A DNA stretch of 64,000 nt. It comes from Candidatus Bathyarchaeia archaeon. Its GTDB lineage: Archaea > Thermoproteota > Bathyarchaeia > TCS64. This document shows positions 1 to 42,049 of the stretch, piece by piece. Location of the stretch: NCBI GenBank assembly GCA_050014495.1, contig JBEKDF010000013.1:1-64000 (forward strand), written 5' to 3'. A program made the position numbers and the translations under genes. Positions within the stretch are counted from its first letter, which is position 1; every line of letters starts with the position of its first letter. The notes under the pieces are model-generated. The model did not search any database and was not told the origin of the DNA. It saw nothing but the letters and a program-made list of their open reading frames with translations.

Positions 1-344
1 GTTGAAGGGGATGGGTTCTACGAGAAGGTGAGGGGTTTGGGATATGCCCGGGATTGCCCCCAAATTCGGTGAGGGGGATTATGACCATTTTTAACCATTT
101 TAGGGACAAGCCAGCGCGCGCGGGCAGGATGACAGAGTTATCCTAATTAAGGGGTGGATGAACCTGATGCCTACTCAGGTATTTTCAGGTCTTAAGCCTC
201 TCATTCGGGGGGCCGTTGACAAAGACTGGGTTGAGCTTACTCGTAGAATGCCAGGGTTAGCCTAATGGCACCAAATACTCGGGAAATCTTAACCCAAATT
301 CACTTTGGTATAAGCCTCATCTTATCGATGAGAACGTACAGGAT

Positions 345-1742
345 TTAATCCCATTTTAGGCCGCAGTCTTTGAACTCGGCTTTAACCTTGGTTATGAGTG
401 ATTCGTAATCGGGGCGCGGTCTATGTTTTTGGAGGTCGTAGCACTCGGTGATAAGCTTCCCATTCTCAGGGGTTGGGGAGTTCGTCAACTTTTCGATTAT
501 GCCCTTAAACATGGGGTAGATATCGTCCCTTTTTACGCCTGCTCTCATCGCCGAATCGGAGGCGTCGATCATAAGTTCCACGTCCGCTGGTGTCTGCCCT
601 CCGTTCATCCGACTCCTGCTGACCCTTGGCGTGTATAGATTGGCGCCATTCACCGCTGCTTCGACGCTACGTAGGATCAGCTCTTCAAGGTGACTCTCTG
701 TGCATAGCTCGGAAACGGGTATTGGCCAATGCATCGGAATGCCCTTACAATTCCGGATTGTTGCCTGGTAGACGACTGACCTCGCGAAGTTAACGGGGAA
801 CATAGCGCGCTTCATGCCGCTGATGTGGTTGAAGTGCTCCACCCCGTTGTAGTAGAGGTTGTCGCGGTAGACCATCCAGGCGATGATCGTCTTAGCAAGG
901 CTCTCGATTATTGCGCCACCGGGTCCACCTGCGAATCCTCCCACAATTCCGAAGCTGCCGCTTATTCCGAAGTATCCGTGGCTCTGAAGTACGAGGGCCG
1001 CGGTGATCAGATCGTATTGGACCTTCACATCGGGTAGAACCGAGAGCAAGACGCCATCCGTGGGCCTTAGCCCGGCTACAGGATCGATGGTGGCGAGGAA
1101 CGAGGATGCCTTGGTGCTGATTGGGTAGTATACTATTGCTGCGCCTGGTCTTCCGGCTTTCCTGATTCCTTCCCTGAGCCATGCTACCTGACGCTTCGAT
1201 GCATAGGCTTCCAGTGGCTCACCATACAACTCGTATCCGTCAATGGCGGGGAGGTTGAAGCCCTCGAGGAAATCGAGTCGGGGGATCATCGCGAAGTTCT
1301 GGACGACGATATTCGCTAGATCCTCGGTGAAGGGTGCATGGTGGCCCGGCGCAATGTTGAGGGGCTCATGACCCTCGATCTTGTGCTGGTGCCAGACCCT
1401 CGTGTCTTTTCCCTCGCCCATTATGACCTCACTCTGCATCGCTTTGATGGCTCCTTGCACCTCTTCCTCCGAGAACCTGACTATTCGCTCGCTGTCGATG
1501 CATAGGCAGCCTACGTCGACGACGAACCTCACAGCCGCCTGCCACGCTGAATCAGCTAAGCTGTTATCAACGTTCAGCCAGTTTGATGGATCGTTTGGAA
1601 TCTCTATTTTATACTCCTTCTCCAGCTCCTGCATTTTCTTAAAGAGGGCGATGTCCCAATCCTTGATTGTTTTTTTAGGTCCCCTTCGCATTCGATCAAC
1701 GACTTCCACTAGGCTGATCATTATACTCAAGTCAATATCCAT
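345..1742 (-). CDS. mtmB: Monomethylamine:corrinoid methyltransferase (MtmB) family protein, no pyrrolysine
   Basis: 465-aa ORF with MtmB-like segments (LADSAWQAA, RIVRFSEEE, AGRPG, GGFAGGPGGA); no in-frame TAG. True start may be MISLVEV a few codons in. Confidence 0.85.
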   Translation of the reverse strand: MDIDLSIMISLVEVVDRMRRGPKKTIKDWDIALFKKMQELEKEYKIEIPNDPSNWLNVDNSLADSAWQAAVRFVVDVGCLCIDSERIVRFSEEEVQGAIKAMQSEVIMGEGKDTRVWHQHKIEGHEPLNIAPGHHAPFTEDLANIVVQNFAMIPRLDFLEGFNLPAIDGYELYGEPLEAYASKRQVAWLREGIRKAGRPGAAIVYYPISTKASSFLATIDPVAGLRPTDGVLLSVLPDVKVQYDLITAALVLQSHGYFGISGSFGIVGGFAGGPGGAIIESLAKTIIAWMVYRDNLYYNGVEHFNHISGMKRAMFPVNFARSVVYQATIRNCKGIPMHWPIPVSELCTESHLEELILRSVEAAVNGANLYTPRVSRSRMNGGQTPADVELMIDASDSAMRAGVKRDDIYPMFKGIIEKLTNSPTPENGKLITECYDLQKHRPRPDYESLITKVKAEFKDCGLKWD

Positions 1743-1862
1743 CTTCGACCTTAAATCATTAGATGAAGTGTAGTCTAATCATAAAGTCGGATCTTATTGA
1801 GAGCTTCATTTACCCGTTAATATGAAATAGGGATTCGATTAGTAGACTGTCAGTGAAACTTC

Positions 1863-2534
1863 TTGAGTATTGAGGAACGGGTTCTGCAGAAACTCTATGA
1901 GGCTGTGCTTAACTTCGACTCCACGGCCGCGGAGAACGCTGCGAAGGAAGCCATGGCTCTGAATATGGATCCGATTAAGGCTATCGAGGAGGGGCTAGCA
2001 AGGGGGCTTAGGGAGATAGGTGACAAGTTTGAGCGTGGTGAACTTTACCTCCCTCACCTTATCATGGGTGCGGATGCCATGGAGGCTGCCATCAAGGTCC
2101 TCGAGGGGCATATGACTCAGAGTGGATTAGAGGCGATAAACCGTGGAACCGTCGTCATTGGGACGGTCGAGGGTGACATCCACGACCTCGGCCTCCGCAT
2201 TGTCTCCTCAATGCTTAGGGCCAACGGTTTCAAGGTCTACGATCTGGGATTCAACACGAAGAGCCTGGACTTCATTGAGAAGGCGAAGGAGGTAAACGCC
2301 GACATAATCGCGGTCTCATCGCTGATGACTACCACCATGCCTTTCATGAAGGACCTCATCGAGGCATTAGAGGCCTCAGGGCTCCGAAGTAAGTTCTTGG
2401 TGATCGTTGGCGGCGGCCCAGTTACTGAGCAGTGGGCGAAGGAGATTGGGGCAGATGGATATGGACGAGATGCGGCTGAGGCGGTAAGGGCTGCTAGGGA
2501 GCTGATGAAGCGGAAGAGGGGATCAGCACCTTGA
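1863..2534 (+). CDS. Cognate corrinoid (B12-binding) protein, MtmC/MtbC/MttC family
   Basis: DxHxxG motif (EGDIHDLG), SSLMTTTM and GGGPVT..WAKEIGADGY motifs, N-terminal cap helices; TTG start. Confidence 0.93.
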   Translation: MSIEERVLQKLYEAVLNFDSTAAENAAKEAMALNMDPIKAIEEGLARGLREIGDKFERGELYLPHLIMGADAMEAAIKVLEGHMTQSGLEAINRGTVVIGTVEGDIHDLGLRIVSSMLRANGFKVYDLGFNTKSLDFIEKAKEVNADIIAVSSLMTTTMPFMKDLIEALEASGLRSKFLVIVGGGPVTEQWAKEIGADGYGRDAAEAVRAARELMKRKRGSAP

Positions 2535-3946
2535 CTTCGCCAAACCTTTGGGAGGTCCTTGATAGGGCGTGCAATACAGGTCCGGTGATACCTGGCAAGG
2601 ACTTCGACATGAAGTTGTTTCACACCGTCACAAGGCTCATCAAGGAACATGACATCAAGTACGACCCAAATACGCCGGTGACGAGCGATGACGGACTAGC
2701 CGACGAAGCGTGGAAGGCGGGGAGGGAATTATTTGAGGAGGTTGGGTCATACTGCATTAATTCGGGTAGAGTAATCAAGTTTGATTCCTCCGAGATCGGG
2801 GATGGATTAAGGGACCTCCGCGGGGATGCGGTAGTTGGCGATGGAGCAGAGAGGAGGGTTCTATCCCTAAGGAGTGTCGAGGATAAGAGGCCTCCATCCA
2901 TCGTTTGTGGGGGAGTAATTGAGAGCGACTTCCCCGAGGGTGAGAACTTCGTCAAGCTCTATCAGAGCATCGCTCAGGAGCCATTCATCGACGGATTCTA
3001 CGTGGGTCCGCCTCTGCACACATCTGAGGGACGACTCGTTAGATCGGGGACGCCACTCGAGATGCACAGCGGGAAGTCGATGGCAACCTGGGTTCGAGAG
3101 GCTGTTCGACGCGCAGGCAGGCCTGGGCTCCACTTCATCTCAGCGTGCACCCCGTCCATCGCGAATGTTGCGGCCTCAGATCCGATTGAGGGTATAAGGC
3201 GCTCAGATGGAATCGTGGCGACGATCATGCCGGAGCTCAAGACCGACTATGAGAACCTGAATAAGGTGACCTTCGCACATGACTACGGTTGTGTTAAGCA
3301 CATCTACAACGGCGGAATGATCGGGGGATGGGCGGGGGGACCCGAGGGAGCTCTCCTCGCGTCGATCGCTAACGCCTTGATGGCAGTCATGGTATACAAG
3401 ATCAATGTAGGCTCCTCTTATAACGCGCTGGGCTACCTCAGGGCTTCTGCCCCGAACTACAGCGCCTTCGTCACCCGCCCCTGCATCTGGGGTTCATCGA
3501 TAGGCAGCCAAGCCCTCTCAAGGAACACGAAGATCATCAACACTGGGCTCGCCATGACTAATGCGGGACCCGGTACGGAGATGCAGTTCCAGGAGATGGC
3601 CGCTGCTCAGTGCGCAGCAATTCCATGTGGCAGGGAGGGTCTCTCACAAGGCGCGAGGAGGTTTAAAGTCAGGCCCCTCCTAGGAAGCGGCCTAGAGAAC
3701 AGGTTCTGGTCTGAGGTTGGCTACGCCATGGCGGGGGTGAAGAGGGACCTAGCCAACACCATCGCAAACTCGCTGCTTGCTAAATACGAAACCAAGATCA
3801 CCAGGGAGTCTGATGGCGGTCCACCCGGATACACCTTTGACGAGATTTACGACCTAACGACTCTGAAGCCGAGGCAACAGTTCATAGATGTTTACGAGAA
3901 GGCGAAAAAGGACCTAGAGGACCTCGGACTAGAATTCAGAAACTAA
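2531..3946 (+). CDS. mtmB: Second MtmB-family methyltransferase, no pyrrolysine
   Basis: DDGLADEAWKAG, RVIKF, AGRPG, ELKTDY, GGWAGGPEG motifs; overlaps the corrinoid gene stop (TTGA). Confidence 0.87.
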   Translation: MTSPNLWEVLDRACNTGPVIPGKDFDMKLFHTVTRLIKEHDIKYDPNTPVTSDDGLADEAWKAGRELFEEVGSYCINSGRVIKFDSSEIGDGLRDLRGDAVVGDGAERRVLSLRSVEDKRPPSIVCGGVIESDFPEGENFVKLYQSIAQEPFIDGFYVGPPLHTSEGRLVRSGTPLEMHSGKSMATWVREAVRRAGRPGLHFISACTPSIANVAASDPIEGIRRSDGIVATIMPELKTDYENLNKVTFAHDYGCVKHIYNGGMIGGWAGGPEGALLASIANALMAVMVYKINVGSSYNALGYLRASAPNYSAFVTRPCIWGSSIGSQALSRNTKIINTGLAMTNAGPGTEMQFQEMAAAQCAAIPCGREGLSQGARRFKVRPLLGSGLENRFWSEVGYAMAGVKRDLANTIANSLLAKYETKITRESDGGPPGYTFDEIYDLTTLKPRQQFIDVYEKAKKDLEDLGLEFRN

Positions 3947-3974
3947 CATTCACGCGCGACAACAATACTGTTAA

Positions 3975-5880
3975 ATGGAAAAATGTCTTGGACTCATTAA
4001 CTTGAGTCCCTCAACAAAGGTGCTCTTCGAACCAATTGGAAAGAAGATAGACGCCTCCGCCAACGAAACCATTCTCGAAATCGCAACTCGAGCGGGCGTA
4101 GGTATTAGATCGGAGTGCGGTGGAATCCAGACTTGCGGGAAATGTCGCATTGTTGTGAAGAATGGAAGAGGGCTAACGAGCCTAACGGAAAAGGAGAGGC
4201 AGATCCTTTCCAAGGAAGACATTGAAGTGGGACAACGTCTGGCATGCGCCACTAGATTAGTCGGGGACTTGGACCGTTTGACAATCATGCTCCCCCCCAG
4301 GTAGCCTCGTTAGGGAACGGAAATTCATGGAGGAAGGTATAGAAGGTAAGGTGAAACTAGACCCAGCATTCAGAAAATTTGTCATCACAGTGTCTAAACC
4401 CGCTATAAGTGACAGGAGATCCGATGAAGTCAGGCTCCTGGACAGCCTCGGCGAGAAATACGGATTGAGACACTTATCAATCGACTACTCGGTTCTGAAG
4501 GATCTCCCTAACAACCTGTATCTCCCAGATGCTTTAACAGCAGTCGTTTGGAATGATTCCGAATTGATCTCCCTCGAGAAAGGCGATACGAGCAGTATCC
4601 AGTACGCTTTGGCCATCGATGTTGGTACCTCGAGAATAACTTGCTCACTTGTGGATACATCAACGGGGCACAAGCTTGCACGCAGGTCAATTGAAAATCC
4701 ACAGATAACATACGGCGAGGATGTCATGACTCGAGCCACCTTCGCTCAACTGAGCGATGAAAATCGAGTTCATCTACAGAAGATAGTTGTTGAGGGGATA
4801 AACCAGCTAATCGAAAACCTCTGCACCGAGAACGAAATCTCTCCTGCTAACATCTACGAGGCAGTGGTGGTGGGGAACACCGTCATGCACCATATGCTTC
4901 TCGGCATAGAGACGAAGCATCTTGCGATGTCCCCATTCGAGCCAGCCACCAAAGCACCAATCCATATAAAATCCGGGGAAGTGGGACTGAAAATGAATCG
5001 CATGGGCATTGTAACTCTATTGCCTATTATTGATGTATTTGTAGGATCTGATGCAGTCGGAGACATAATTTCGACCGGGTTATATCGCAGCCGAAAGCCC
5101 AGTCTTCTCCTAGACATAGGGACTAACACAGAAGTCATGCTGAGCTACAAAGGGATTGTATCAGCCTGCTCCTGTGCCTCTGGCCCAGCTTTCGAGGGAG
5201 TGCACATCGAGCACGGAATGAAGGCAGTGACTGGAGCGATAGAGAGCATCCGAATAAATGAAGGAGGCCTCGACCTGAGCTACGATGTGATAGGAGGAAA
5301 CAAACCCATCGGACTTTGCGGATCAGGAATAGTCGATGCAATCGCCCAGCTCCTTTCAAGAGGTATCATCGACAGAGTCGGCAGGTTCAACACCGCGTCC
5401 GAAACCCCGAGGCTGAAGAAACAGGGTGGAGTCATTAAGTATGTAGTAGCTTGGAGTGAGGAGAGTGATACAGGTAGTGAGATCACGGTTTCCCAGAAGG
5501 ATATCACCGAGGTCATACTTGCAAAGGCGGCGATCTACTCTGCCTGCGCTTCTCTCATGGCGATGAAGAAGTTGGGAATAAAGGACATAAACAAAATCAT
5601 GGTTGCAGGCGCATTTGGCAGCCATCTGGACAAGAATAATGCTAAGGCAATTGGGTTGTTACCAGCGGTAGATAACGATAAGATACATTTCGTGGGCAAC
5701 TCGGCTTTGGCCGGTGCTGAGATGGCCCTAAGATCAAGGAGTAACCGACTTCTATCTGACAGGATATCAGAGAGCACAATATATGTGGAGTTGGCGACGA
5801 GCAATGACTTCGACCGGGAGTTCACAGGAGCGCTTTGGCTGCCCCACCGTGACGCAAGTAGATTCCAAGTGAAAGCATAA
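3975..5880 (+). pseudogene. Corrinoid reductive activator (RamA/RACo, ASKHA/DUF4445 with N-terminal 2Fe-2S domain), split by a +1 frameshift
   Basis: 3975-4304 has the 2Fe-2S motif CGGIQTCGKC...RLAC; 4327-5880 has DVGTS, DIGTNTE, ASGPAFEG, GLCGSG, AGAFG. Removing one C from the C7 run at 4292-4298 joins them (..MLPPGSLVRERKFMEEG..). Confidence 0.85.
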
Positions 5881-6062
5881 TCGAATTTTAATGCGCACGC
5901 GTACACTCCACATCTGTGGCAGAGGATCTCCTTCGATACTCCATCCTTCACTACATTTCAGCCTTCTTAAATAATCTCCACGGAAGGTTCGGGCACTTCC
6001 TGACCTCCTCTTAAATTATTATGCCACACGTTTTATCTGAGCTTCATTAGCCACATTAAACA

Positions 6063-9060: not shown

Positions 9061-9429
9061 ATGAATATCAACCTAGCTGAGCTGAAGGAGAGGGCTGACC
9101 GGTCGAACAGAGGCGAATCCTACGAGATAATCGATAGGAATGAAGAATATCAATTCGGTGTGGGTTACGAGAGGGTCTCTGGATCGGAGCTGAGACCTTA
9201 CCTAGAGCTCCTCGTTTGTCTCTGCAGGGGCGGAACCCCTAAAATGAATGAGTTAGAGTCCCGCATCAGAATAATCAAAGCCATCGAGTCGCGGGGATAC
9301 AAGCTAACCTGCGAGGATGATGGCTCAATATCCTGCGAAGCATCAATGGATGAGACACTGATAGAGAGCGAGGTGGAGGCCATCTCCGACATCATGCGCG
9401 CGAATAGCCTTATCCTTACTTCAACCTGA
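9061..9429 (+). CDS. Hypothetical protein
   Basis: 122-aa ORF 13 bp after the permease, host-like composition. Confidence 0.65.
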   Translation: MNINLAELKERADRSNRGESYEIIDRNEEYQFGVGYERVSGSELRPYLELLVCLCRGGTPKMNELESRIRIIKAIESRGYKLTCEDDGSISCEASMDETLIESEVEAISDIMRANSLILTST

Positions 9430-9607
9430 TACTACGCACGCAAGGAAACTAACATGCTCGCGACACTCTGATCAGACGGACCTTATCGGGTTTGCCAGGC
9501 TGATTATTGTTCTGCTATTCGTTATGCGCTCGCGCGGACGAGTTGAACCGTTCCCTTAATCAAAGGTGTGTCCTGGAGTTCACTCACGTAAATTATTCGA
9601 GAGAGAG

Positions 9608-30265: not shown

Positions 30266-30327
30266 AAACGGAAAAAGTAGATATTGAGATTGAAACACTC
30301 AAAAAACTTGAAATATCAAAACAAGAT

Positions 30328-32510: not shown

Positions 32511-32535
32511 GGTTGTCTCAGATGACATAACCTTA

Positions 32536-32896: not shown

Positions 32897-33008
32897 AGTG
32901 AATAACTCAATCTGAAAAAAGGTTTGCTCAATACAGCTCAGATGAATAGAGCTTGTATGTAATTACATTCAAGAAACATTATTAAGCATTTCTAAACGTA
33001 TATACATT

Positions 33009-33338
33009 ATGGGTATTAATTGGGAAAGCGAAACATCCAACAGAAAATATGTATGGGAAAAGAACAACTATCCTATATTTGCAACCTACATCCGAAGTCT
33101 AGGAAAATTGGATAACGCGCCATTCTGTGTTTATAAACATCCGAAAGAAAAGTTTATCGAAAAAAATATTTGTCTTCAATGTTGGTATCTAGGTTTAAAA
33201 TGCATCTATTGGGTATATGCTCACGATAGGAAAAGTCCGCAGATAGTAGATGCTAAACAGCATCACATAAAACATTTAAATATTAAAGAAAAGGAAGAAA
33301 GAGAAAAATGTCTGCTAACTCAACAACTGAAACAATAA
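33009..33338 (+). CDS. Hypothetical protein with Cys/His motifs
   Basis: 109-aa ORF, CVYKH..CLQC..C. Confidence 0.65.
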   Translation: MGINWESETSNRKYVWEKNNYPIFATYIRSLGKLDNAPFCVYKHPKEKFIEKNICLQCWYLGLKCIYWVYAHDRKSPQIVDAKQHHIKHLNIKEKEEREKCLLTQQLKQ

Positions 33339-33538
33339 AAAATATAACTACAATTTCGGGTATAACCACTAGGACTTTTACCAATATAACAATAACACAA
33401 GTGCCAATTTATGAATGGGATAATACCAAATTCTTTCTATTCATAATTTCAATAGTGATCCTATATTTTGTGGCGGGTTATATTCAGAGACATAGAGTTA
33501 GCCAAAGTAGCTGGGAAAAGCCAAACTGGAAGTTTTAA
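33308..33538 (+). CDS. Small single-TM protein with Thr-rich N-terminus and three N-x-T sequons
   Basis: NST, NIT, NIT; TM FFLFIISIVILYFVAGYI; basic C-terminus. Confidence 0.65.
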   Translation: MSANSTTETIKNITTISGITTRTFTNITITQVPIYEWDNTKFFLFIISIVILYFVAGYIQRHRVSQSSWEKPNWKF

Positions 33539-33627
33539 CTATTACAATATAACAGATTTCAATAGTTAATAGTTAATAGTTTTCTCAATAGAATAAACAT
33601 TATTACAGTAGTAATATTAATATACTT

Positions 33628-33996
33628 ATGCAATCCAATTATGATATGGTTAAATCAAATAATCAATCTAGGTCTTATACTAGAAGAAATTTAGGCTCAA
33701 GCAAGTCTGATAATTATTTCATTGAGTACTATAAAAACATAGCAAAGCCAAAGCGTGGTATCGTAATGAGCAGGGAAGAATATTTGGCTTGTTGCTCATT
33801 TAAGACACTTCATAAACAGTTATGCAAACTCTATCATCAGAAAATAGATATTACAGAGCGGATGGATAAACTGAATATTGAAATTGATTCGGTTATAAAA
33901 ATTATTGAGAAAAATCCTAATATCCCACTCTATTCAATGTATACATTAAAAAATGAAGAATGGAATATGGGTGAGAGTGAAGTAAAAGTTGTATAG
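33628..33996 (+). CDS. Hypothetical protein
   Basis: 122-aa ORF overlapping the next gene. Confidence 0.6.
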   Translation: MQSNYDMVKSNNQSRSYTRRNLGSSKSDNYFIEYYKNIAKPKRGIVMSREEYLACCSFKTLHKQLCKLYHQKIDITERMDKLNIEIDSVIKIIEKNPNIPLYSMYTLKNEEWNMGESEVKVV

Positions 33997-34660
33997 AAAA
34001 GAAACACAATTTGAGCCACAAACCGAATCAACTCAGCAACAGCAGAAAATAAATATACCATATATAATAGAGCAACAATTAATAAAAATCAGCTCGAGTG
34101 GTTGGAAAGGCGATGAAGCTGGGTATAGTAATGCAATTCAAACTTTATTAAAAGATTTACCAATTGAGAATCAAAAACATATAGAATCACGTAAGGACGA
34201 ATATATAACAAGTGTAGAGAAACCAGAGTGGAAGTATTGCTCAGGTAGAAAGATGGGTACATTAGAAAATCCATTATTTTGCAACCGAAAGGGTGTGGAT
34301 TGGCGGTGGAGTGCTGATATCAATAATGGACAACCCATAAGAATAAGCCCAATAATTGAAGAAGTTGAAGAAACAAACTATCAAACACTGTACGGTCTTA
34401 TAATGGAAGAAATGCAGAGTATGGGTCTACTTTTCAAGATAGAGCCACACGATAGAGTTGGCAAAAAGATAAAATATCCGCCTACACCGCTTATCACACT
34501 AAAAGATGGCTCTGAAGTCCGTGTCTTAATGCAAAAGGATGTCCCGCCCGAAATAGCCTTACTACAAAAGCAAGCAAATTCTAATGAAACGGATGAAGAT
34601 AATTCTACTGAAGAATATGAAGATAGTGAAGAAATGGACTTAGACGAAGATGTCCAATAA
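33989..34660 (+). CDS. Hypothetical protein with acidic C-terminal tail
   Basis: 223-aa ORF overlapping the ATPase start. Confidence 0.7.
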   Translation: MYRKETQFEPQTESTQQQQKINIPYIIEQQLIKISSSGWKGDEAGYSNAIQTLLKDLPIENQKHIESRKDEYITSVEKPEWKYCSGRKMGTLENPLFCNRKGVDWRWSADINNGQPIRISPIIEEVEETNYQTLYGLIMEEMQSMGLLFKIEPHDRVGKKIKYPPTPLITLKDGSEVRVLMQKDVPPEIALLQKQANSNETDEDNSTEEYEDSEEMDLDEDVQ

Positions 34661-35705
34661 TTTAGAATATGCTGATCCGCCAGCGGATTATCACGGTTCA
34701 CATCCTTGGGCTAATTGGCACAATTTCGCATATGAAAAGGGTGGAAATTTTAATGCAAATGTATTGAATTTTATTCAACGAAAAAGAAACTCTCTAGAAG
34801 CCCTAATAATTTGTGCAAGTGGTGCCGCCGGCTCTGGTAAAAGTTATTGGGTTTTGAGAATTTGTGAGATCCTAGATCCTAAATTCTCAGTGGATCAGGT
34901 TGCCTTCGGTCCAGATGAATTTTTGGCACTTATAGGTCCAGACACCAAACTGAAAATGGGTCAATGTATAGTTTTAGATGAAAGTCAGTGGGGTGCAAAC
35001 TCAAGAAGTTGGTTCGATAAAGCCCAGCAGGACTTGATGTTACAGCTTGAAGCGATCCGATCAAAAGGGTTTGTCATATGGATCGTCTCTCTTTCTGAAG
35101 CATCACTAGATTTGATCGCTAGAAATTATGTCCTTTCCGCCAAAGCTCATTTATTAAAAAGAGCACATGCACGATTCTATTCGTACCAGATGTCTCCATT
35201 CAGCGTAAAACCCTATCCAAAAATTGTTAGTCGGGACTGTGAGATGGAATTACCGGGTGTTGAGTCGTGTCAATTTTTTTCGTGCTTAAAATGTCCATAT
35301 TCAGGTGTACAAAAAACTCTCTGGAAAAAGCGATCTCACTGGAAAGAAAATGGCGATATAATTTGTCAAAATTTGAGATCAAAATATGAGCGTAAAAAGA
35401 AGGAATTTGTCGAATTGATGGCTAATCAGTCGATTGAAGGTAGAGCGGCAGAAAAAGAGATTACAATAAGCAAGAAAATCTCTGTGGATGATATAGTAAA
35501 GCTACTTAGAGAAAATCCTAATAGACTTATAATGAGTAACCAAGGTAATATTGGAAAAGCAAGTGCTTTATTGGTTGTTAGAGAAATATATCCAAGCGTA
35601 AGTGAGAGAAGCATAACAAACGCAATAGGAATACTCAATCAAGATGTCCTTTTCTGCTCTAAATTGAGTTTAAAGAAGACAGTGCCTATTCCAGAGACAG
35701 GATAA
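34650..35705 (+). CDS. P-loop ATPase, possibly viral morphogenesis/packaging type, with Cys cluster
   Basis: Walker A GAAGSGKS, Walker B IVLDE, CQFFSCLKC..C. Confidence 0.75.
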   Translation: MSNNLEYADPPADYHGSHPWANWHNFAYEKGGNFNANVLNFIQRKRNSLEALIICASGAAGSGKSYWVLRICEILDPKFSVDQVAFGPDEFLALIGPDTKLKMGQCIVLDESQWGANSRSWFDKAQQDLMLQLEAIRSKGFVIWIVSLSEASLDLIARNYVLSAKAHLLKRAHARFYSYQMSPFSVKPYPKIVSRDCEMELPGVESCQFFSCLKCPYSGVQKTLWKKRSHWKENGDIICQNLRSKYERKKKEFVELMANQSIEGRAAEKEITISKKISVDDIVKLLRENPNRLIMSNQGNIGKASALLVVREIYPSVSERSITNAIGILNQDVLFCSKLSLKKTVPIPETG

Positions 35706-35987
35706 ACCATATATCTATATTTCTAGACAGTAGAAGCCACACAAACCATACAGGTGGATGTGCATCCTTTTCCTAGTATTGAAGAAACCTTACATATAAG
35801 TTGTTATGAGTTTTCAACAATATTTGTAATGAATATAACAGAAAAAACAAGAAAAAAGAGAAAAGAGTTGCGCACCTTTTCACTTATATTATTATATGGC
35901 GACAGGTATATTGATCAGGTATCGCAACTCTTTCGTGCTAGGGTTTAATAGTGGACAATATCACTATATATACCGTAGGGTCAAAGG

Positions 35988-36707
35988 ATGTCTGAAAACG
36001 TTATAATAGAACAATCCGCTATGGATGCTATACTAAAACAACTAGAAGTACATGCAAAAAAGGTATCCAAGCACAATAAATGGACAGATCAACATTTGGA
36101 TGAATACTTGTTGAAATATCGTTCTACTTTAGCTATGTTCTATTATTCTGGACTCAGATGTTCGGAAGTTATCGGAGACATCGGTCCTAAGTGGAAAGTA
36201 TTAAGCAACAATGGTAGGATACTTAGCCGAAACCTTCAGCTTTCAAAAGAATGGTGGAAGTTGCCTGAATCAGATGGTATCTGGGTTTGGAAGTCTAGAC
36301 CTTCAGCAAAGGGAATACTTAAAGAAGACTTGGAGATTAAGCAAGGCACACTATACATCTACAGTAAACCCTTAAAGGGTGGACTAAGAGAAAGTCCCAT
36401 AGAGATAAGCACAGCTTTACCTTATGTTGATTACATCATACAGGCGCGGAATTTAACAGATGCTGGTGATAGAGTATTTAGACTTAGGCGTTCAGCATTA
36501 TGGCAAACACTACGCAAACTAGTTGGTTATGGTTCACATAGATTCAGAAAGTCTAGAGTTAATTGGTTCGCTTCGCAACCAGATGTTAATCTAAAGGATA
36601 TGCTTCAGTGGTTTGGTTGGCGTCGTTCAGCAACTGCCGACTTTTATATTGTAAAGGCTAAAAGTGCAACAGACATGAAAAATATACTAAATAGGGTGGT
36701 TTTATGA
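35988..36707 (+). CDS. Compact tyrosine recombinase (Xer-like catalytic domain)
   Basis: Full catalytic set: YSGLRCSE, LKGG, HRFR, FGW, FY. Confidence 0.88.
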   Translation: MSENVIIEQSAMDAILKQLEVHAKKVSKHNKWTDQHLDEYLLKYRSTLAMFYYSGLRCSEVIGDIGPKWKVLSNNGRILSRNLQLSKEWWKLPESDGIWVWKSRPSAKGILKEDLEIKQGTLYIYSKPLKGGLRESPIEISTALPYVDYIIQARNLTDAGDRVFRLRRSALWQTLRKLVGYGSHRFRKSRVNWFASQPDVNLKDMLQWFGWRRSATADFYIVKAKSATDMKNILNRVVL

Positions 36708-36749
36708 TCATTTACCTATACTTATTTTATATAAAGAAGTGGTCATCAA

Positions 36750-36953
36750 TTGAGTAGCGAGCATATTTTTAAAGGAATTTACCTTAGAGTTAATTTCAAT
36801 ACTGAGCAACAGTATAAGGAATTCATTCGATACCTTCAGCACGCCAAAGTTAAGCTATCCTATACTTCACCTAAAAGTGATGGCGTCGGTGGATACTTCG
36901 GATTCATTTCGTTTGAAGGATCAAAATATTACATAGAGCCTTTTGAAGTCTAG
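36750..36953 (+). CDS. Small hypothetical protein
   Basis: 67-aa ORF, TTTATATA TATA-like box just upstream. Confidence 0.55.
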   Translation: MSSEHIFKGIYLRVNFNTEQQYKEFIRYLQHAKVKLSYTSPKSDGVGGYFGFISFEGSKYYIEPFEV

Positions 36954-37230
36954 TGAGTAGAGATATAAATTACTTTTAAAAAGAGTTTTTAGCAAACCGT
37001 ATCAGCTAGATCATCTATATATGTAATTTATTAAAAAGTGAATATTGATCGCGATCAATATACAGAAAAACTTGAAACAGTACTGCCATCTGCGATGGAG
37101 GTGTATCACTTGATACACCCCTATACCTTGTTATCATTTGATAACAGGGTTAAAGCTACTAAGCCACTTAGTAGGACGCAAATGGTTTTCTCTGTTTTAG
37201 TGTCCGACTTATAGAAATGGCATAAAATCA

Positions 37231-37301
37231 CTTAAAAATGTACTTTCTTATAAGGAAGTTGGATAGGGAAGCTGCGAAGAGGATGTAGGCGTTAAATCTT
37301 A
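37231..37301. repeat. attR arm and core, plus first displaced copy of the YkgJ 3' end
   Basis: Arm CTTAAAAATGTACTTTCT (37231-37248); 37250-37301 equals 42050-42101 with 2 mismatches and encodes IRKLDREAAKRM*. Confidence 0.9.
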
Positions 37302-37588
37302 GCTAAATAACAGTTTCGAATCTATGAATTAATACCTCGCTGGGTTTGTTTTTCACCCTAATTATTAATTATAGTATACGGAACCGCGCGCGCCTCGAAA
37401 CGTCTACATGTGTGCGCTAAACTGGCTGATGCCTGAAAGGGTCGGCGACAAGAGAGCCTCGATAGGAGCCTATCCAATTGGAGGTGAATATGTTATCGAC
37501 ATCGACTCTTATCTCAACTATAAGAAACACAGTCACAACCCACGTCTGGGTTCAAGGCGCACGTGAAATAGTTCTTCCCCAAGTTCAG

Positions 37589-39133
37589 CTATTGGGTGGG
37601 TAGCCTTATTGTGAAGGTCGTTCCCTCGCCAAGCTTGGACACGAAGCCCACTTTTCCCCCGTGACCCTCAACCACCATCTTAACGAAGTATAGTCCAAGC
37701 CCCAAGCCACCCTTCTTTGTTGTGAATAGTGGCTCGAAGATATGCTTGGAGGCTTCCTCACTTATACCCACGCCAGTGTCACCGACCTCCATGACCACCT
37801 CCTCGCCCACACGCCTAGCTGAAACTGTGAGCTTAACCCCCTCGGGCATCGCCTCGTAGCCGTTCCGCACAAGGTTATCCAATACCCTACGCATCAGCTC
37901 AGGGTCAAGAGACACATCCTCCAGTCCCCCTCTCAGCTGCATGTCCAGACTTATGTTCTCGGGTTTAGGCACACCATCAACAACTTCCTTGACGAGGGAC
38001 GATAAATCCACCTTCCGCTTCACTACCTTCACATCCCGTGTCCCTTCCCTAAACCCCTCGATCATGTGTAGAGACCTCTCCGCGTTGCTGGAGATTAACA
38101 ACAGCATCCTATCTGAGAGCTCCTGCTTCTTCCTAGCAATCTCCGCGGCTTGGCTGATGGCTATGAGCGGCCCACGCAGATCGTGCGCCACCGTTGCCCC
38201 AATCCTACTAATAGTATCCATCTGCTGTATGCTACGTAGCCTCTCATCGCTCTCACGCAACTTAGATTCCTCCTCCTCAACCAATCCCTCAAGCCTGTAA
38301 GCCCGCTCCTGCACCCTCTCCCTTGCAACAGCCAACTCTGTGTTCAACGTCTGAAGACCTTCATTCGTCTTGTTGAGCTCCTTATTGGCCGCCGCCGACA
38401 CCTCTTCAGCTCTCTTCCGTTGTGTGATGTCATCGAATATAGCGACGAAGTACCCCTTTTCCGGGCTGTAGGCGGAGATGGATAGCCATATGCTGAGGGG
38501 TTTGAGGAATAGCTCGAAGCTCGCAGGCACTCCAGTTGAGGAGACTCTACCATAAATATCGATGAGCTCAGGTTTTCCCTCTTTGATTCCCGGTATTGCT
38601 TCAGATACCTTTCTTCCAATTACTTCCTCCCTCTTCAAGCCGGTTAACCTCTCGAAGGAGTCATTGACTTCGAGGTAGGTGAAGTCCTCTGGTTTGCCAT
38701 TTTGGTCTTGTATCATCTTACAGTAGGCGAAACCGTTCATCATGTTGGAGAAGAGAGTGCGGTACCTTTCCTCGCTTACCTTTAACGCATTCTCTGCCCG
38801 ACTCTTCTCCACAGCGTGCCTGATCCTTCTTGCGAGGACTTTGAAGTGTGCTAGCTCCATCTCCTTCTTGACGTAGTCGTCAGCCCCAGCGGTGAAGACG
38901 TCAGAGGCTATCTCATCACTCCCTCGCCCAGTGTAGATTATGAAGGGGATCGTCCTCGTCTTCTTGATCTCGGTGCAGAACTTGGTGCCATCCATCCCCG
39001 GCATCTGGTAGTCGGAGACGATGCAGTCGAAGGGCTGATCCGATAGGAGTTTCAGCGCGTCGGATGGTATTTGCATCGTTGTTACTGTTAGGGAGGGGTC
39101 ATCGGACTCGAGGCTAAGCTTCGTGAGTTCCAA
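37589..39133 (-). CDS. REC-PAS-histidine kinase hybrid
   Basis: SDYQMPGMDG receiver, PAS, AHDLRGP H-box, N/G1/F/G2 boxes. In-frame IRVLLVDDEE lies upstream of the called start. Confidence 0.92.
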   Translation of the reverse strand: MELTKLSLESDDPSLTVTTMQIPSDALKLLSDQPFDCIVSDYQMPGMDGTKFCTEIKKTRTIPFIIYTGRGSDEIASDVFTAGADDYVKKEMELAHFKVLARRIRHAVEKSRAENALKVSEERYRTLFSNMMNGFAYCKMIQDQNGKPEDFTYLEVNDSFERLTGLKREEVIGRKVSEAIPGIKEGKPELIDIYGRVSSTGVPASFELFLKPLSIWLSISAYSPEKGYFVAIFDDITQRKRAEEVSAAANKELNKTNEGLQTLNTELAVARERVQERAYRLEGLVEEEESKLRESDERLRSIQQMDTISRIGATVAHDLRGPLIAISQAAEIARKKQELSDRMLLLISSNAERSLHMIEGFREGTRDVKVVKRKVDLSSLVKEVVDGVPKPENISLDMQLRGGLEDVSLDPELMRRVLDNLVRNGYEAMPEGVKLTVSARRVGEEVVMEVGDTGVGISEEASKHIFEPLFTTKKGGLGLGLYFVKMVVEGHGGKVGFVSKLGEGTTFTIRLPTQ

Positions 39134-39336
39134 CGAGGACTCTTCGTCGTCGACGAGAAGGACACGGATGGCATCGGTGCTATTCTTCCCAGTTTGTTTC
39201 TGTAAGGAGGCTCACCGAATATTTAGAACAGTTACGCAGTCTTAGTTAACTCTTCGGATGGAGATTCTCAATTACCTTGGTTCGCATTGTGGGAGATTCA
39301 TAGTTAATAGCTTCGAAATAAGCATCTCGAAGGCGC

Positions 39337-40056
39337 GCGCGCAACGGGGTCACTTCAGTGTTATTCGTACAGCGTGGATTCACTGGGGAGGAGGATATCT
39401 TCTCCGGTGATGGCAACTTTCTTGAGGTTTTCTGCCCTGGCAAGGATCGACTGCTCGAATGGATTGACAATTTGGGGAATCTGTACGACATTTCTCTGAC
39501 GAACATAAAGAAGTTCTGTGTTGGTTCTCCGATTCAGGCTGCAGCTGATGTTATGACTTTGCTTGTTCAAGAATATCATCTGACTGCTGATCAGGTCAAG
39601 GGTGTTGATGTTCATCTTCCACCGAGTGGTGCAAGGACGGTTAACAACCGCACCATGCCAGATATTAATTGCCAGTACATAATGACGGTGATTCTACTTG
39701 ATGGAAAACTAACTTTTGAAGCAGCCCACTCATATGAGAGGATGACCGATCCTAAAGTACGAGAAGTGCAGTCCCTCATTAACCTAATTGGCGATCCAAA
39801 ATTTATTGGGCAAGAAGAGAAACGACCTGGAATGGTGCGGGTCCACCTGGTAGATGGTCGTACTGTGGAGAAACTCGTCTCATCGGTTCGAGGAACTGCA
39901 GATAATCCTATGACTCGAAGCGAAATCGAGATAAAATCTATGGACCTCCTTCAGGGTATTCTCGGCAAGGATAAAGCGAACTCTCTAATAGGAACCATCT
40001 GGGAACTGGAGAAGGTGCGGTCGATGCGAGAGCTGCGACCATTACTCTCAGTTTAA
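39337..40056 (+). pseudogene. C-terminal half of an MmgE/PrpD-family protein, 5'-truncated
   Basis: Starts at ARNGVTS..RGFTG (mid-protein motif), IKKFCVG, RGTADNPMT; in-frame stop at 39319-39321 just upstream. Confidence 0.8.
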
Positions 40057-40094
40057 GTATATTTCACGTGCGCGCGCTTCGTGCTTTTTATCGC

Positions 40095-41699
40095 TTATCT
40101 GAAGAATTTCTGCAAGCCGTTGCTTGAAATGATGTATTCGCGCATCAAATCATCCCGAACCGATTTTTTGGTGTTTCCATAGAAGTTCGACCTCAACCTA
40201 AAAGTGTCGCCCCATTCCATGAATACGGGATTGTCCAGCGAGGTGGCAGGCCAATATGAAAGATCGCCTCCATTGGGATTTCCTGTCGCAACGAAATTGG
40301 CCCAATAGGATGAGCAATTTTCAGCAATCTTGAAATCCAGCTCGGTCCAGTCCCTCTGCTGAGGAATATCACGCAGAGACTTGAACACATACCACAATTC
40401 ACTGCTGTGCCAAGCCCATCGGATCTCGGCTTCGCGGCCCGGTGCCCAATGAGAGAAATAGTAGGGATACAGACTGCTGACCGGATTCAATTGGTTCAGC
40501 ATCAATGCCACGATCAGGTTTTGAGTGCCGCCAGTTTCGCTGCGCAGACGCAGGCTTTCCATGGTGGCAGCAAAATCATCGGTTGTGTTGTACAACTCGG
40601 AAAAATTGTATTTGTCAAACAGCTCCTGATAGGTTTTCTTTGAGGATTCCATGAAAATACTCTTGGTGATGATTGAAAATTCCCCGTTCCCTTCGCCACA
40701 GTTGACACCGAACAGGATATTTTTGCCTTTGAGAGCCCCTTTCTGTTTAAAGAAATCGATCGGGCTATGGGTCATGGCGTAGCCGTCCACCATCGAAGTG
40801 AAACCTTTGCCATAAACCTCGCTTTTGGGGGTGTTCTCATTCACAAAGGCACTGGTCGGCAAAGCCCGCAGCTCAGTCACGCTCAGACCGGCATAGCCCT
40901 TGTCCTTCAAATACGTATCGCACGCAGTTTCCGTCTGATCAAGCGTGGATCTTCTGCTTAACGCACTAAAACTGCTGTCCATGATGGCACGGTCAAATAA
41001 ATCGGTCGCCAGGGGTGATGTGAGAATGGAGCAAACTGCACCGGCGCCTGCGGATTGCCCGGCAATGGTGACCCGTGTAGGATCACCACCAAACATCTTG
41101 ATATTTTTCCGAACCCATTCTAGGCTTTTGATCTGATCCAGCAGGCCGTAGTTGCCTGATGTGCCGGTTGGTGATGCGGCGGAAAGATCTTTTGTTGCCA
41201 GATAGCCGAAAACGCCCAGACGATATCCGACCGAAACGACTATGATTCCCTTTTTACAAAGCTCTTCCGGATTGAATTCCGGTTCATAGCTGTAACCATG
41301 CATACTTGCACCGCCATGAAACCATACCAGTACCGGGCAATTTTCATCCGGGGTTTGGGCGGGTGTTGCGACATTCAGGTAGATACAGTCTTCGCTCATG
41401 ACTGGTTTCTTATCTTTATACTCATAGTAAAACTCTGGTCCCCACCAATCTGTGGTTGATAGAATCTGCACGGCCATAGGTGCATAAGTATCACAGGCTC
41501 GAACACCGTCCCAAGGTTCTGGATCTGCAGGAGCGGCCCACCGCAAATCACCAACCGGTGGTTTGGCGTAGGGCACGCCTTTATAAATCGTTATGCCGTT
41601 TTCAACGTAAAAATCACCCGATACTTTGCCAAAGACAGTCTGGACAATTCGCGTGCGCGTGGGGTCTATTTCCTGCTCGGAATATTGTTTCCCCATCAT
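40095..41699 (-). CDS. Carboxylesterase type B (pNB-esterase-like)
   Basis: GVPYAKPPVGDLRW, SEDCIYLNV, GNYGLLDQ, nucleophile GQSAG, WHSSE. Confidence 0.93.
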   Translation of the reverse strand: MMGKQYSEQEIDPTRTRIVQTVFGKVSGDFYVENGITIYKGVPYAKPPVGDLRWAAPADPEPWDGVRACDTYAPMAVQILSTTDWWGPEFYYEYKDKKPVMSEDCIYLNVATPAQTPDENCPVLVWFHGGASMHGYSYEPEFNPEELCKKGIIVVSVGYRLGVFGYLATKDLSAASPTGTSGNYGLLDQIKSLEWVRKNIKMFGGDPTRVTIAGQSAGAGAVCSILTSPLATDLFDRAIMDSSFSALSRRSTLDQTETACDTYLKDKGYAGLSVTELRALPTSAFVNENTPKSEVYGKGFTSMVDGYAMTHSPIDFFKQKGALKGKNILFGVNCGEGNGEFSIITKSIFMESSKKTYQELFDKYNFSELYNTTDDFAATMESLRLRSETGGTQNLIVALMLNQLNPVSSLYPYYFSHWAPGREAEIRWAWHSSELWYVFKSLRDIPQQRDWTELDFKIAENCSSYWANFVATGNPNGGDLSYWPATSLDNPVFMEWGDTFRLRSNFYGNTKKSVRDDLMREYIISSNGLQKFFR

Positions 41700-42049
41700 T
41701 GTTCAGGTAGCATCTCATTTTAGGCTCATTTAAGTATTATTTTCGTCTAAAAAGCGCGCGCTTCGGGCAGAGCGTGGGTGAAGAATACCATTTTCTCCTC
41801 GGTGGCGATGAATGCGCGCGCGCATTCAGGGATGTGGAAAGTAATAACCAATTAAAAAGAAGAGAACCGCAGTAGTGATGCAAATTAAACTGGTAAATAT
41901 AAGCATTTTTCTCCGCTCCTTTCTAAGCCTCTCAAAATCTTGCTTTAACTTTTCAACAGATCGACTCAGTGCTTGATCATCGTTACTAAGACCCATGGAT
42001 AAGAAGAGGATGTAATCCGCTTTAATGAATTTCGCGCCAATGCGCGCGC

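Follow-up and report, generated by a model that had tools for sequence, protein, structure and literature searches.

Extragenic palindromes of the REP/BIME type serve as targets of insertion sequences (ISs) in bacteria, and ISs of the IS5 group of the IS5 family give rise to a 4-bp duplication of a palindromic tetranucleotide. Palindromic structures are also targeted by IS1272, a member of the IS1182 family, and these targets are varied inverted repeats of 21-85 bp that are replaced without being duplicated (PMC5678879). Here, we describe short runs of alternating G and C in a 64,000-nucleotide stretch of DNA (the window) from a Candidatus Bathyarchaeia archaeon, in the 3.1-Mb genome of this archaeon (G000) and in its relatives. 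Beside these runs lies a clade of ISs with DDE transposases, nearest to the IS1182 and IS5 families. We consider it probable that the runs are the target or the duplicated flank of this IS clade, and that solitary runs are empty or vacated sites together with repair scars at IS-driven mosaic junctions. If this is true, a family of jumping genes has reshuffled the accessory DNA of this archaeon.

Alternating G/C runs are concentrated in the accessory DNA of the window

The window contains 19 alternating G/C runs of at least 6 nt, seven of which reach at least 8 nt (starting at 114, 37385, 39333, 40070, 41754, 41814 and 42042), when simulations give only ~0.5-1 runs of this length per 64 kb. A preliminary description of this DNA had listed such tracts, and the letters that it quoted were present at all 17 positions. 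Its view that they are concentrated in accessory rather than core DNA also held: 13 runs of at least 6 nt, intergenic or at the 3' tip of an ORF, lie in accessory DNA (1-15.9 kb and 37.3-42.05 kb), versus a single run outside ORFs (44070), plus four within ORFs, in the 33.5 kb of core; the 9.7-kb low-GC island has none. The tracts at 16157-16161 and near 20497 are only 5 nt long each. As had been described, all six tracts of the 37.3-42.05 kb segment fall between long ORFs, gene calls being a longest-ORF approximation rather than the output of a gene finder. The broader claim of a tract at almost every junction was correct for 1-17 kb, where a tract (GC or purine/pyrimidine) was found at five of the six junctions whose adjoining blocks lack collinearity, or a match, in the five relatives searched, and where the only junction that is collinear in the relative G016 has no tract; it failed for 3953-3958 (Table 1). 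The letters of the reported perfect palindromes are in the sequence, but, genome-wide, palindromic arms extend beyond the runs no further than expected from shuffled sequences. The tracts are not chimeras of the assembly, since those at 37385, 39333, 40070, 41754, 41814, 42042 and 44070 are bridged by independent contigs of other sequencing runs.

Table 1. Tracts and associated features in the window.
Feature	Position	Strand	Context
Group-1 IS terminus	1-113		Terminal 113 nt of a multi-copy IS, ending ...TTTAGGGACAAGCCA; the contig begins inside the IS
GCGCGCGCG run	114-122		Flank of the group-1 IS end at 1-113
Remnant of a sequence longer in relative G012	124-325		Cut at the run, with a slack of 0-1 nt
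CGCGCG	3953-3958		Inside a conserved MtmB-corrinoid-RACo operon; chance level, not a junction
Imperfect purine/pyrimidine-alternating tract ATGCGCACGCGTACAC	5891-5906		In the block I/block II junction
GCGCGCG run	9396-9402		Exact end of block II; replaces the last codons of ORF 9061-9429
CGCGCG	9531-9536		In a segment unmatched in the five relatives searched; at 6 nt, of weak significance alone
GCGCGCG run	11564-11570		40 nt outside block III (MFS gene)
GCGCGC	13027-13032		In the block III/block IV junction
GCGCGC, then ACGTGTGTGC	15845-15860		Junction of block VI with the syntenic core (core start ~15910-15931)
61-nt direct repeat, copy 1	37250-37310	+	Native 3' end of the CxxCxxCC-domain gene
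CGCGCGCGC run	37385-37393		Downstream of a histidine-kinase gene (37589-39133, minus)
(GC)5 run	39333-39342		16 nt upstream of a PrpD fragment (39358-40056)
(GC)4 run	40070-40077		Separates the 3' ends of two convergent genes, the PrpD fragment and a carboxylesterase gene
(GC)4 run	41754-41761		55 nt upstream of the carboxylesterase start
(GC)5 run	41814-41823		Left border of the 218-bp segment
Run-bounded 218-bp segment	41824-42041	-	Complete 56-aa ORF (41826-41996)
(GC)4 run	42042-42049		Right border of the 218-bp segment; adjoins copy 2 of the 61-nt repeat
61-nt direct repeat, copy 2	42050-42110	+	92% identical; truncated 3'-end duplicate of the CxxCxxCC-domain gene, joined straight to the run
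GCGCGC	44070-44075		Just past the end of a permease block

Runs of 8-10 nt are in excess genome-wide and intergenic

The window tracts exemplify, at one locus, a feature of the whole genome. G000 carries 459 alternating G/C runs of at least 8 nt, versus 22-52 expected from whole-genome Markov simulations of order 1 and order 3, so that the enrichment proposed earlier is large against such a background. Run lengths accumulate at 8-10 nt and then drop off (481 runs of 6 nt, 186 of 7, 192 of 8, 144 of 9, 111 of 10, five of 11 and four of 12). Although ORFs make up 81% of the genome, 380 of the 447 runs of 8-10 nt (~85%) are intergenic, as the preliminary description had led one to expect, with no preference per bp among divergent, convergent and tandem spacers. 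The runs are dispersed across most contigs, and their flanks share no consensus beyond T...A.

The excess is specific to a lineage within one genus, and the relatives compared are not independent of one another. G016, which has the most IS matches among the relatives (20), shows the same accumulation of runs up to 10 nt and likewise stops at 12 nt; G012, with five IS matches, has a near-geometric distribution of run lengths, while G005 (a 270-contig assembly) shows a strong excess of 8-nt runs but a single transposase match. Across genomes, the link between ISs and runs is therefore loose.

Since GCGCGC is among the sequences that type II restriction enzymes are known to recognize, the runs could be scars left by an enzyme that cuts it, the ends being filled in and religated, in some cases with an end from elsewhere; by reasoning only, fill-in and rejoining of a 4-nt overhang would lengthen a 6-nt site to 10 nt. 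Most genomes avoid the sites of their own restriction enzymes, however, and the IS ends that adjoin the runs would be left unexplained, which makes this scenario barely credible.

Homology breaks at the runs

None of 436 runs of at least 8 nt was spanned by an intragenomic homology block, versus 29-50 of 436 random intergenic sites, and a block ended within 5 nt of 107 of these runs, versus 17-32 for control sites; likewise, none of the 459 runs of at least 8 nt lay inside a collinear paralogous alignment. The idea that the tracts mark the junctions of a mosaic is thus well founded, and homologues in relatives also break exactly at runs, as had been anticipated. At window position 123, G012 reads through without a GC run and continues with sequence that has no homologue in G000. 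Block I (340-5877), which is collinear in G012 and G002, and block II, which starts at 6059, are on different contigs in relatives. A G016 match stops at 9395, where G016 has its own 3' end and no run, and the G016 copy of block III has no adjoining run. Homology to contig C55 begins at 41823/41824 and homology to G002 and G003 at 42049/42050, in each case beside a run, and at 44070-44075 an alignment shows that the window lacks ~76 nt present in G002. At 3953-3958, the alignment to G012 keeps the same length, with substitutions only and no indel.

A clade of DDE-transposase ISs abuts the runs

In G000, a run lies no more than 150 nt from the end of the contig at 44 of the 184 contig ends, at position 114-117 for 33 of them, and these ends stop in the termini of multi-copy repeats that read ...GGGACAAGCCA followed by GCGCGC. 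The 113 nt at the start of the window are of this kind and recur identically at an end of contig C58 and in C29. They belong to a first IS group, 39 of whose 41 ends are followed directly by GCGCG..., with flanking runs of 5 (3 cases), 6 (11), 7 (5), 8 (11), 9 (6) or 10 nt (3), and never more than 10. A full group-1 copy (C61:6043-7308) encodes a DDE_Tnp_1 transposase, and group 1 is one of four related groups, all with DDE_Tnp_1 (with DUF772) transposases and with runs of 5-10 nt alongside. These elements measure ~1.2-1.65 kb and have 16-bp terminal inverted repeats; IS1182 was the best NCBIfam model, and IS5 the second best, for all six DDE ORFs tested, which cover the four groups. Where both borders of full copies were resolved (groups 1, 3 and 4), the element is flanked by a run at each end, in G000, G016, G012, G002, G009 and one further MAG, and group 2 adjoins runs too. 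If an IS inserts into a run and duplicates it, each copy would indeed lie between two runs.

Alternatively, the runs may be cargo, the mobile unit being run-IS-run and inserting at arbitrary AT-rich sites without duplication; a solitary run would then be left when the identical terminal runs recombine and the IS is dropped, as for solo LTRs. In line with this, runs with or without an IS adjoin arbitrary breakpoints with a slack of 0-4 nt where homologues are run-less (window 123, 9396 and 41824; C3:52662; C24:1503; G016 L030; and, inside ISs, positions 116, 508 and 634/1086), no duplication was visible outside the runs in nine IS copies inspected, and IS1272 replaces its target without duplicating it (PMC5678879). 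Several observations nevertheless favor the run as a target. One IS subtype with identical ends has runs of 6, 6, 7, 7, 8 and 9 nt, which shows that the run does not just travel with the element as a copy. A 4-bp duplication within a pre-existing run can account for flank pairs such as (5,7) and (5,9): the sum of both flanks minus 4 is 8-10 nt, the length class of solitary runs, in nine of the 12 copies with both flanks readable, the other three implying targets of 12-14 nt, a length that is rare among solitary runs. The group-1 core also terminates in CA-3', the usual terminus of DDE transposons, which places the run outside the element. Furthermore, two copies of a 115-nt sequence, 100% identical to each other, lead from the very same nucleotide into different DNA, a solitary CGCGCGCG at the end of C32 and an IS fragment plus GCGCGCG in C76. 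In a paralogue that is 91% identical to one IS flank, the corresponding position holds an imperfect run, GCGCTCGC. We found no collinear pair of an intact IS between two runs and an empty site, and a metagenome scan of the C61 site returned the filled form only (2 of 2 contigs), so that the target and cargo readings are not separated; on balance, we regard the cargo reading as unlikely.

Solitary runs are also about three times denser near ISs, with 0.31-0.34 per kb at distances of up to 5 kb from 92 IS-end anchors and 0.10 per kb more than 20 kb from an anchor or on contigs without one. As this last value is still ~6-10 times the simulated background, it could point to a host feature, namely a minimal extragenic palindrome, possibly prone to form Z-DNA, that would be spread or maintained by other means and on which ISs merely land. 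Such a feature would also fit the strongly intergenic placement, even across spacer types, and one 8-nt run that is kept in place between G012 and G000 save one substitution. It is hard to reconcile with the lineage-specific excess, with the absence of runs from collinear paralogous alignments, with the absence of adjoining runs from the same gene blocks in G012 and G002, and with the lack of any detected Y1/RAYT-type transposase in G000 (96% complete). We know of no process that seeds bare 8-10-nt runs at deletion junctions, and we consider a host feature quite improbable.

Run-bounded segments show no sign of an integron-like cassette system

Next to the 4.7-kb segment at 37.3-42.05 kb, the CxxCxxCC-domain gene consists of 27115-27534 joined to 37250 onward without the island, and the corresponding empty-site joint (27534 to 37250) was found. 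Within the segment, the 141 nt that follow the run at 37385-37393 are repeated in contig C53, and position 37391 of this run is T instead of C in a contig of a related population (sequencing run X12; ~97% alike over 465 nt, at a 90% likeness setting). MmgE_PrpD_C is the sole domain match of the PrpD gene, which is probably truncated, its N-terminal domain being missing. The run at 41814-41823 is 2 nt shorter in one X12 contig, and the adjoining 218-bp segment is 91% identical to C55:5738-5952.

It had been proposed that gene cassettes are excised and inserted at the runs by a dedicated recombinase, as in integrons. Run-dense stretches do resemble arrays of single genes parted by runs, the genome has 13 tyrosine-recombinase matches, and the 218-bp single-gene segment is missing from one X12 contig, where 41810 is joined to 42039 and 11 letters fit both sides. 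This joint is weak (one contig, 31 letters on the short side, 90% likeness), and it could just as well result from a deletion between two runs. Moreover, genes between runs are in mixed orientation, truncated genes and IS fragments are also found between runs, one and the same block has its runs at nucleotides that differ between G000 and G016 and no runs in G012 or G002, the borders of the 56-aa gene segment vary between paralogues, and the runs are spread over most contigs instead of lying beside one integrase. We thus saw no sign of a site-specific cassette system and, with palindromic arms beyond the runs at chance level, none of a short-palindrome recombinase; this proposal appears very unlikely.

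Discussion

We favor a model in which the IS clade would insert into (GC)3-5 runs and duplicate part of the run, most economically by a 4-bp duplication of the GCGC in the middle of a run of 8-10 nt. Solitary runs would be sites that are unoccupied or that an IS has vacated, and some may be scars, formed when an IS was lost or when neighbouring run-ended DNA was rejoined elsewhere. Copies of the IS could then recombine, delete and move adjacent DNA, and such rearrangements would leave runs at mosaic junctions, including those of the 4.7-kb segment and of the 0-16 kb region. Counting against this model, many runs adjoin positions at which no GC run is present in the intact homologue, and two of these positions also carry an IS (window 123 compared with G012; G016 L030 compared with contig C16 of G000). 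A strictly run-targeted IS could not make such junctions without an additional, putative end-joining step, and targeting does not by itself explain the ~400 solitary runs or the stop of solitary and flanking runs alike at 10 nt.

Among known systems, integron attC cassettes also form dense arrays in which single accessory genes alternate with short palindromic sites, but the sites described here measure 8-10 nt without attC-like structure, and neither array polarity, precise cassette borders nor a single integrase-linked platform is seen. REP/BIME elements are comparable as hundreds of short intergenic palindromes targeted by specific IS families, yet our runs are only 8-10 nt long with a flanking consensus limited to T...A, lie at homology breakpoints rather than within conserved spacers, and come with no RAYT-like gene found in G000. 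With IS1272 of Staphylococcus aureus and the IS1182 family, the clade shares a DDE transposase with DDE_Tnp_1 and DUF772 domains and an association of insertion with palindromes instead of asymmetric sites of the usual kind (PMC5678879); it differs from them by a single defined (GC)n partner of 8-10 nt that flanks the element at either end, by its archaeal host, by scores of 71-178 bits, far under the curated cut-off of 270, and by proteins of 279-322 aa for a 488-position model. Matches to the IS5 family likewise stay under all curated cut-offs, and, unlike in the IS5 group, strict alternation over 8-10 nt, a far longer context, seems to be required of the target, and hundreds of solitary sites exist. 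The IS5 group is nonetheless the consistent second-best match and resembles the present elements in its size of ~1.2 kb, its one transposase gene and its short inverted repeats, and the flank pairs of nine of 12 copies fit its 4-bp palindromic duplication, here GCGC.

Alternating G/C runs are abundant, limited in length and mostly intergenic

Alternating G/C runs are in intergenic excess in this genome, behave as breakpoints of homology and are associated with a clade of insertion sequences (IS). All of the tracts quoted in the preliminary description are present in the window as written; the window holds 19 runs of at least 6 nt and seven of at least 8 nt, and six of these seven lie in 37385-42049. 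Across the whole assembly (G000, GCA_050014495.1; 92 contigs, 3,108,400 bp, 49.3% G+C), we counted 1,126 runs of at least 6 nt (481 of 6 nt, 186 of 7, 192 of 8, 144 of 9, 111 of 10, five of 11, four of 12 and three longer), a distribution that is not geometric and that piles up at 8-10 nt and then stops. The ~400 solo runs, which have no adjoining IS, and the runs flanking IS alike stop at 10 nt. The comparison with a Markov background that had been proposed, for which three genomes were simulated at each of orders 1 and 3, showed an excess: 459 runs of at least 8 nt were observed vs 22-52 in the simulations, and 267 of at least 9 nt vs 3-9. An order-5 model was set aside as a null because it learns the motif itself, yielding many runs of 8-10 nt.

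The claim that the tracts are intergenic also held: using as gene model our longest non-overlapping ORFs of at least 100 aa (not gene-finder output), which cover 81% of the genome, 380 of the 447 runs of 8-10 nt were intergenic or straddled an ORF end. Their density per bp was alike in tandem (168 in 265 kb), divergent (91 in 144 kb) and convergent spacers (93 in 106 kb), which speaks against a promoter or terminator role, and they were clustered (variance 3.7 vs mean 1.33 per 10 kb). The bases flanking the 459 runs were T at -1 in 56% and A at +1 in 52%, with nothing else in common, indicating that the runs are not part of a longer repeat; no other frequent 7-mer was found adjoining them. Since the T...A preference was strongest at 10-nt runs, the flanks are not eroded ends, and we rejected the idea that the runs are decayed longer tracts. 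A palindrome or hairpin origin was likewise rejected: arm extension beyond the run was as expected from shuffled sequence and the -1 and +1 bases were independent, which puts the arms of the previously noted palindromes at chance level.

Homology breaks off at the runs

None of the 459 runs of at least 8 nt is contained in a collinear paralogous alignment, all 43 run-spanning alignments concerning runs of 6-7 nt. Of the 436 runs with enough flank, intragenomic matches spanned none and stopped within 5 nt of 107, vs 29-50 spanned and 17-32 match ends in four draws of 436 random intergenic sites, bearing out the suspected tie between breakpoints and tracts. In individual cases (see the feature table), there is zero slack between the run and the truncated homology, and no GC run stands at the corresponding place in the intact homologue.

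Features located in the window and in other contigs of G000 (C-numbers); positions without a contig are window positions
Feature	Position	Observation
Direct repeat, 61 nt	37250-37310 and 42050-42110	92% identical; brackets a 4.74-kb segment with six runs
Breakpoint	41824	start of homology to C55
Breakpoint	C3:52662	start of a fragment of an ORF from the window's low-GC island
Breakpoint	9396	run in place of an ORF 3' end; ORF intact in the related genome G016
Breakpoint	124-325	remnant of a longer sequence of the related genome G012
Breakpoint	arbitrary points within IS copies	one being the joint of a 450-bp internal deletion
Intact IS copy	C61:6043-7308	1,266 bp; 279-aa DDE_Tnp_1 transposase; between (GC)5 and (GC)4

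Insertion sequences directly adjoin the runs

A run was found within 150 nt at 44 of the 184 contig ends of G000, in 33 cases at position 114-117. Each of these 33 contig ends lies ~114 nt inside a multi-copy repeat, the last bases of which read ...TTTAGGGACAAGCCA, ...TTTCGGGACAAGGCA or ...TTTCTAAACAGCCTT, followed directly by GCGCGC; window 1-113 is such a repeat end and 114-122 its flanking run. Since no fewer than 33 of the 184 contig ends fall inside these IS copies, the IS clade is a main cause of the fragmentation of this short-read assembly, which conceals how many copies truly exist; this matters for binning and for judging genome completeness.

The intact copy on C61 has perfect 16-bp inverted repeats (TGCCCTGTCCCTAAAT), and inverted-repeat pairs were found in four IS groups. 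Scanning G000 with the IS-end motif gave 82 matches, of which we kept the 41 with a TTT[AC]GGGAC core as group-1 ends and dropped the other 41 as chance. GCGCG... directly follows 39 of the 41 ends, with flanks of 5 nt (3 cases), 6 (11), 7 (5), 8 (11), 9 (6) or 10 nt (3) and none longer than 10. Three further groups, whose transposases are ~31-41% identical to that of group 1, also lie between runs in G000, G016, G012, G002 and G009, with exact borders read for groups 3 and 4. In a group-3 IS (1,655 bp) of G016, the transposase gene is followed by another gene, whose product has a PRiA4_ORF3-like domain (E 1e-19; contig L031:2061-2579). A partial transposase, 76% identical, is found on a 3.1-kb contig titled as the bacterial MAG Candidatus Desulfaltia (L064), reflecting either cross-domain transfer or a binning error.

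IS copies have GC runs on both sides, and the palindromic repeat hides their borders. The flank pairs of 12 readable copies are (10,8), (9,8), (6,6), (6,6), (8,6), (8,6), (8,8), (6,7), (6,8), (5,9), (7,7) and (5,7); assuming a 4-bp GCGC duplication, our arithmetic on these flanks gives a target of 8-10 nt for nine of the 12, a length that matches the solo runs. The density of solo runs up to 5 kb from an IS end is ~3 times that beyond 20 kb, and ~45 of the 459 runs of at least 8 nt adjoin repeats of at least three copies. One 115-nt sequence, present on C32 and C76, continues from the same joining base either into a solo CGCGCGCG or into an IS fragment plus GCGCGCG, the sole case found with the two states as alternatives. 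No intact filled/empty allele pair of an IS site was found: in all 10 relatives tried, the spacers that follow a conserved gene could not be aligned, no orthologues of the flanks of the C61 and C19 copies were detected, the flanks of 16 IS of relatives matched G000 only partially and non-collinearly, and a metagenome scan for an empty C61 site returned two contigs, both filled.

G000 and G016 show the excess of runs and its end after 10 nt most clearly, and transposase matches are most numerous in G016 (20, vs 11 in the collapsed assembly of G000 and 5 in G012). That the run excess tracks IS number across relatives is a hint and not a test, because these genomes are kin.

Numbers of runs of exact length in G000 and related genomes; runs starting with G, with those starting with C in parentheses
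Genome	6 nt	8 nt	10 nt	12 nt
G000	313 (168)	146 (46)	78 (33)	2 (2)
G016	299 (180)	95 (51)	27 (45)	2 (4)
G005	172 (85)	80 (26)	11 (9)	1 (0)
G012	354 (172)	37 (22)	7 (1)	1 (0)
G002	369 (180)	50 (46)	8 (4)	0 (0)
G009	223 (158)	53 (59)	6 (21)	0 (1)

The window in relatives and in other sequencing runs

In the related genomes G002, G003 and G005, a gene for a CxxCxxCC-domain protein lies directly upstream of a lactate permease gene, and the two are 14.5 kb apart in the window. The homology of relatives resumes at 42049/42050, beside the run 42042-42049, and stops at 44061, beside the tract at 44070. An apparent likeness of 42022-42041 to the relatives' CxxCxxCC-domain gene (alignment A1) was discarded, this stretch being homologous to C55 instead.

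Seven blocks were found in window 1-17 kb, with counterparts on different contigs of G016, G012 and G002. Six of their junctions are non-collinear or adjoin unmatched DNA; a GC or purine/pyrimidine tract marks five of these (5891, 9396, 11564, 13027 and 15845), and none is present at the sixth (14713-14805) or at the single junction found to be collinear in G016. The blocks have no adjoining runs in G012 and G002, and in G016 the runs stand at different nucleotides, those of block II being at 0 nt and ~150 nt in G000 vs ~40 and 80 nt in G016. The tract 3953-3958, previously counted as a junction, is a product of substitution within a conserved operon. This operon (345-5880), beside the IS end, encodes two MtmB-like methyltransferases, a corrinoid protein, a ferredoxin and RACo, and is conserved in G012 and G002 at 84-86% identity. 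The genes point to an archaeon (the MtmB-like methyltransferases with corrinoid protein and RACo, HdrA/MvhD and Mbh-like modules). A dispersed repeat of ~40-60 nt at 267-334 recurs in C16, C63 and C85 of G000 and in G002, G005 and G012.

Contigs from four other sequencing runs, compared over 26500-46000, bridge the GC runs with no differences, showing that the junctions are not assembly chimeras, an explanation that the preliminary description had considered. Stretches that have no contigs in X9, X10 and X12 are uninformative. One contig of sequencing run X12 (90% likeness) joins 41810 to 42039, skipping a 218-bp segment between two GC runs; the joint, at which 11 letters fit both sides, is weak, its short side having only 31 letters, and it may reflect either a gain of the segment by G000 or its loss from X12 by deletion between two runs.

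The low-GC island (27535-37249; 9,715 bp, ~30-37% G+C) is an integrative element that is active: other sequencing runs yielded contigs with both its empty site, with 27534 joined to 37250 (depth 7.4 in X5 and 6.6 in X12), and its circular form, with 37249 joined to 27535 (depth 36.3 in X5 and 5.4 in X9), the joint overlapping by 9 nt (ATAAGGAAG). Its insertion point is the 3' end of the CxxCxxCC-domain gene. The first ORF of the island (27605-28897) weakly matches tyrosine integrases (E 5e-4, under cut-off); when the other 13 island ORFs were tested against Pfam, 11 had no match at E 0.01 and two had weak, sub-threshold matches (DUF5517; Dit_N and Lig_C). At 32568-32874, the island contains 69-nt inverted arms of repeated TTTCTAACG units, 81% complementary and 169 nt apart, possibly serving as a replication origin or as an array of binding sites. 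Copy 2 of the 61-nt direct repeat is a truncated second copy of the 3' end of the CxxCxxCC-domain gene, shares its first base with the island's 9-nt attachment core and directly adjoins a (GC)4 run. That it arose from a break at the attachment site, followed by joining to a run-ended DNA end, is only an idea.

Possible origin of the runs

We infer that the runs are the target of the IS and that the solo runs would be empty or vacated IS sites, together with repair scars. This reading is based on the CA-3' ends of the IS core, which are typical of DDE elements, on the varying flank lengths beside identical IS ends, on the flank arithmetic and on the C32/C76 pair. According to its main rival, which we consider less probable, the IS would carry the runs along and seed them at new sites, which is the simpler account of the arbitrary breakpoints, including two that still carry an IS.

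In a more far-reaching reading, each IS insertion would duplicate a run and, after exit of the IS, two run-ended DNA ends could capture any other DNA; one run would become two with a new gene or fragment between them, each new run being a fresh IS target. Such a reading of the runs as portable landing pads in a self-amplifying, transposon-driven gene acquisition appears rather improbable to us. If true, it would account for close run pairs, for truncated genes and IS pieces between runs and for clustering, it would produce integron-like arrays without integrase or attC, and such capture would be a new gene-acquisition route in archaea.

Comparison with known systems

The integron-like cassette system initially proposed is not supported by these data. 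An integron array would be expected to have a single gene orientation, whereas orientation is mixed in C51, C33 and C32. It would also have one integrase and an attI platform, whereas runs occur on most contigs and the 13 tyrosine-recombinase matches in G000 (obtained with a model that is not IntI-specific) are dispersed. Finally, integron cassettes have precise borders, whereas those of one block differ between G000 and G016; the distance between a 56-aa gene and a run is 2 nt in the window, as against 174 and 81 nt in C55. The chance level of the palindromic arms also counts against such a system. REP-like palindromes, in turn, are spread by RAYT, whereas a search of G000 (95.95% complete) with the Y1 (IS200-like) transposase model PF01797 gave no match, and thus no RAYT-like gene. 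As for a candidate Z-DNA-forming element, what these data show is the alternating sequence, in runs 8-10 nt in length.

An IS with a strict preference for one simple-sequence palindrome is unusual, and full-text searches (insertion sequence with GCGCGC and target site; GCGCGCGC with transposase and archaea) found no published description of such an IS among the matches listed. In G000, the association between IS and runs leaves hundreds of marks, from which past rearrangements in this uncultured archaeal lineage can be read with nothing but sequence. Among 820 homologues of the transposase, none has an informative name, those named being only "transposase" or "hypothetical protein". The DDE_Tnp_1 domain (PF01609) was found in 7 of 7 DDE transposase ORFs tested, covering all four groups (E 9e-14 to 1e-24), and the N-terminal DUF772 (PF05598) scored 47-61 bits in groups 2-4 and weakly, at 19.5-20.6 bits, in group 1, under the cut-off of 23. 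Terminal inverted repeats and multiple copies (41 group-1 ends in G000) are family features that these IS share. IS1182 was the best NCBIfam match for all groups, at 71-178 bits vs a curated cut-off of 270, and IS5 the second, with best scores of 44-84 bits vs cut-offs of 110-275. Since these scores lie under the curated cut-offs, we file the IS as distant, short relatives of IS1182 and IS5 and not as members of these families.
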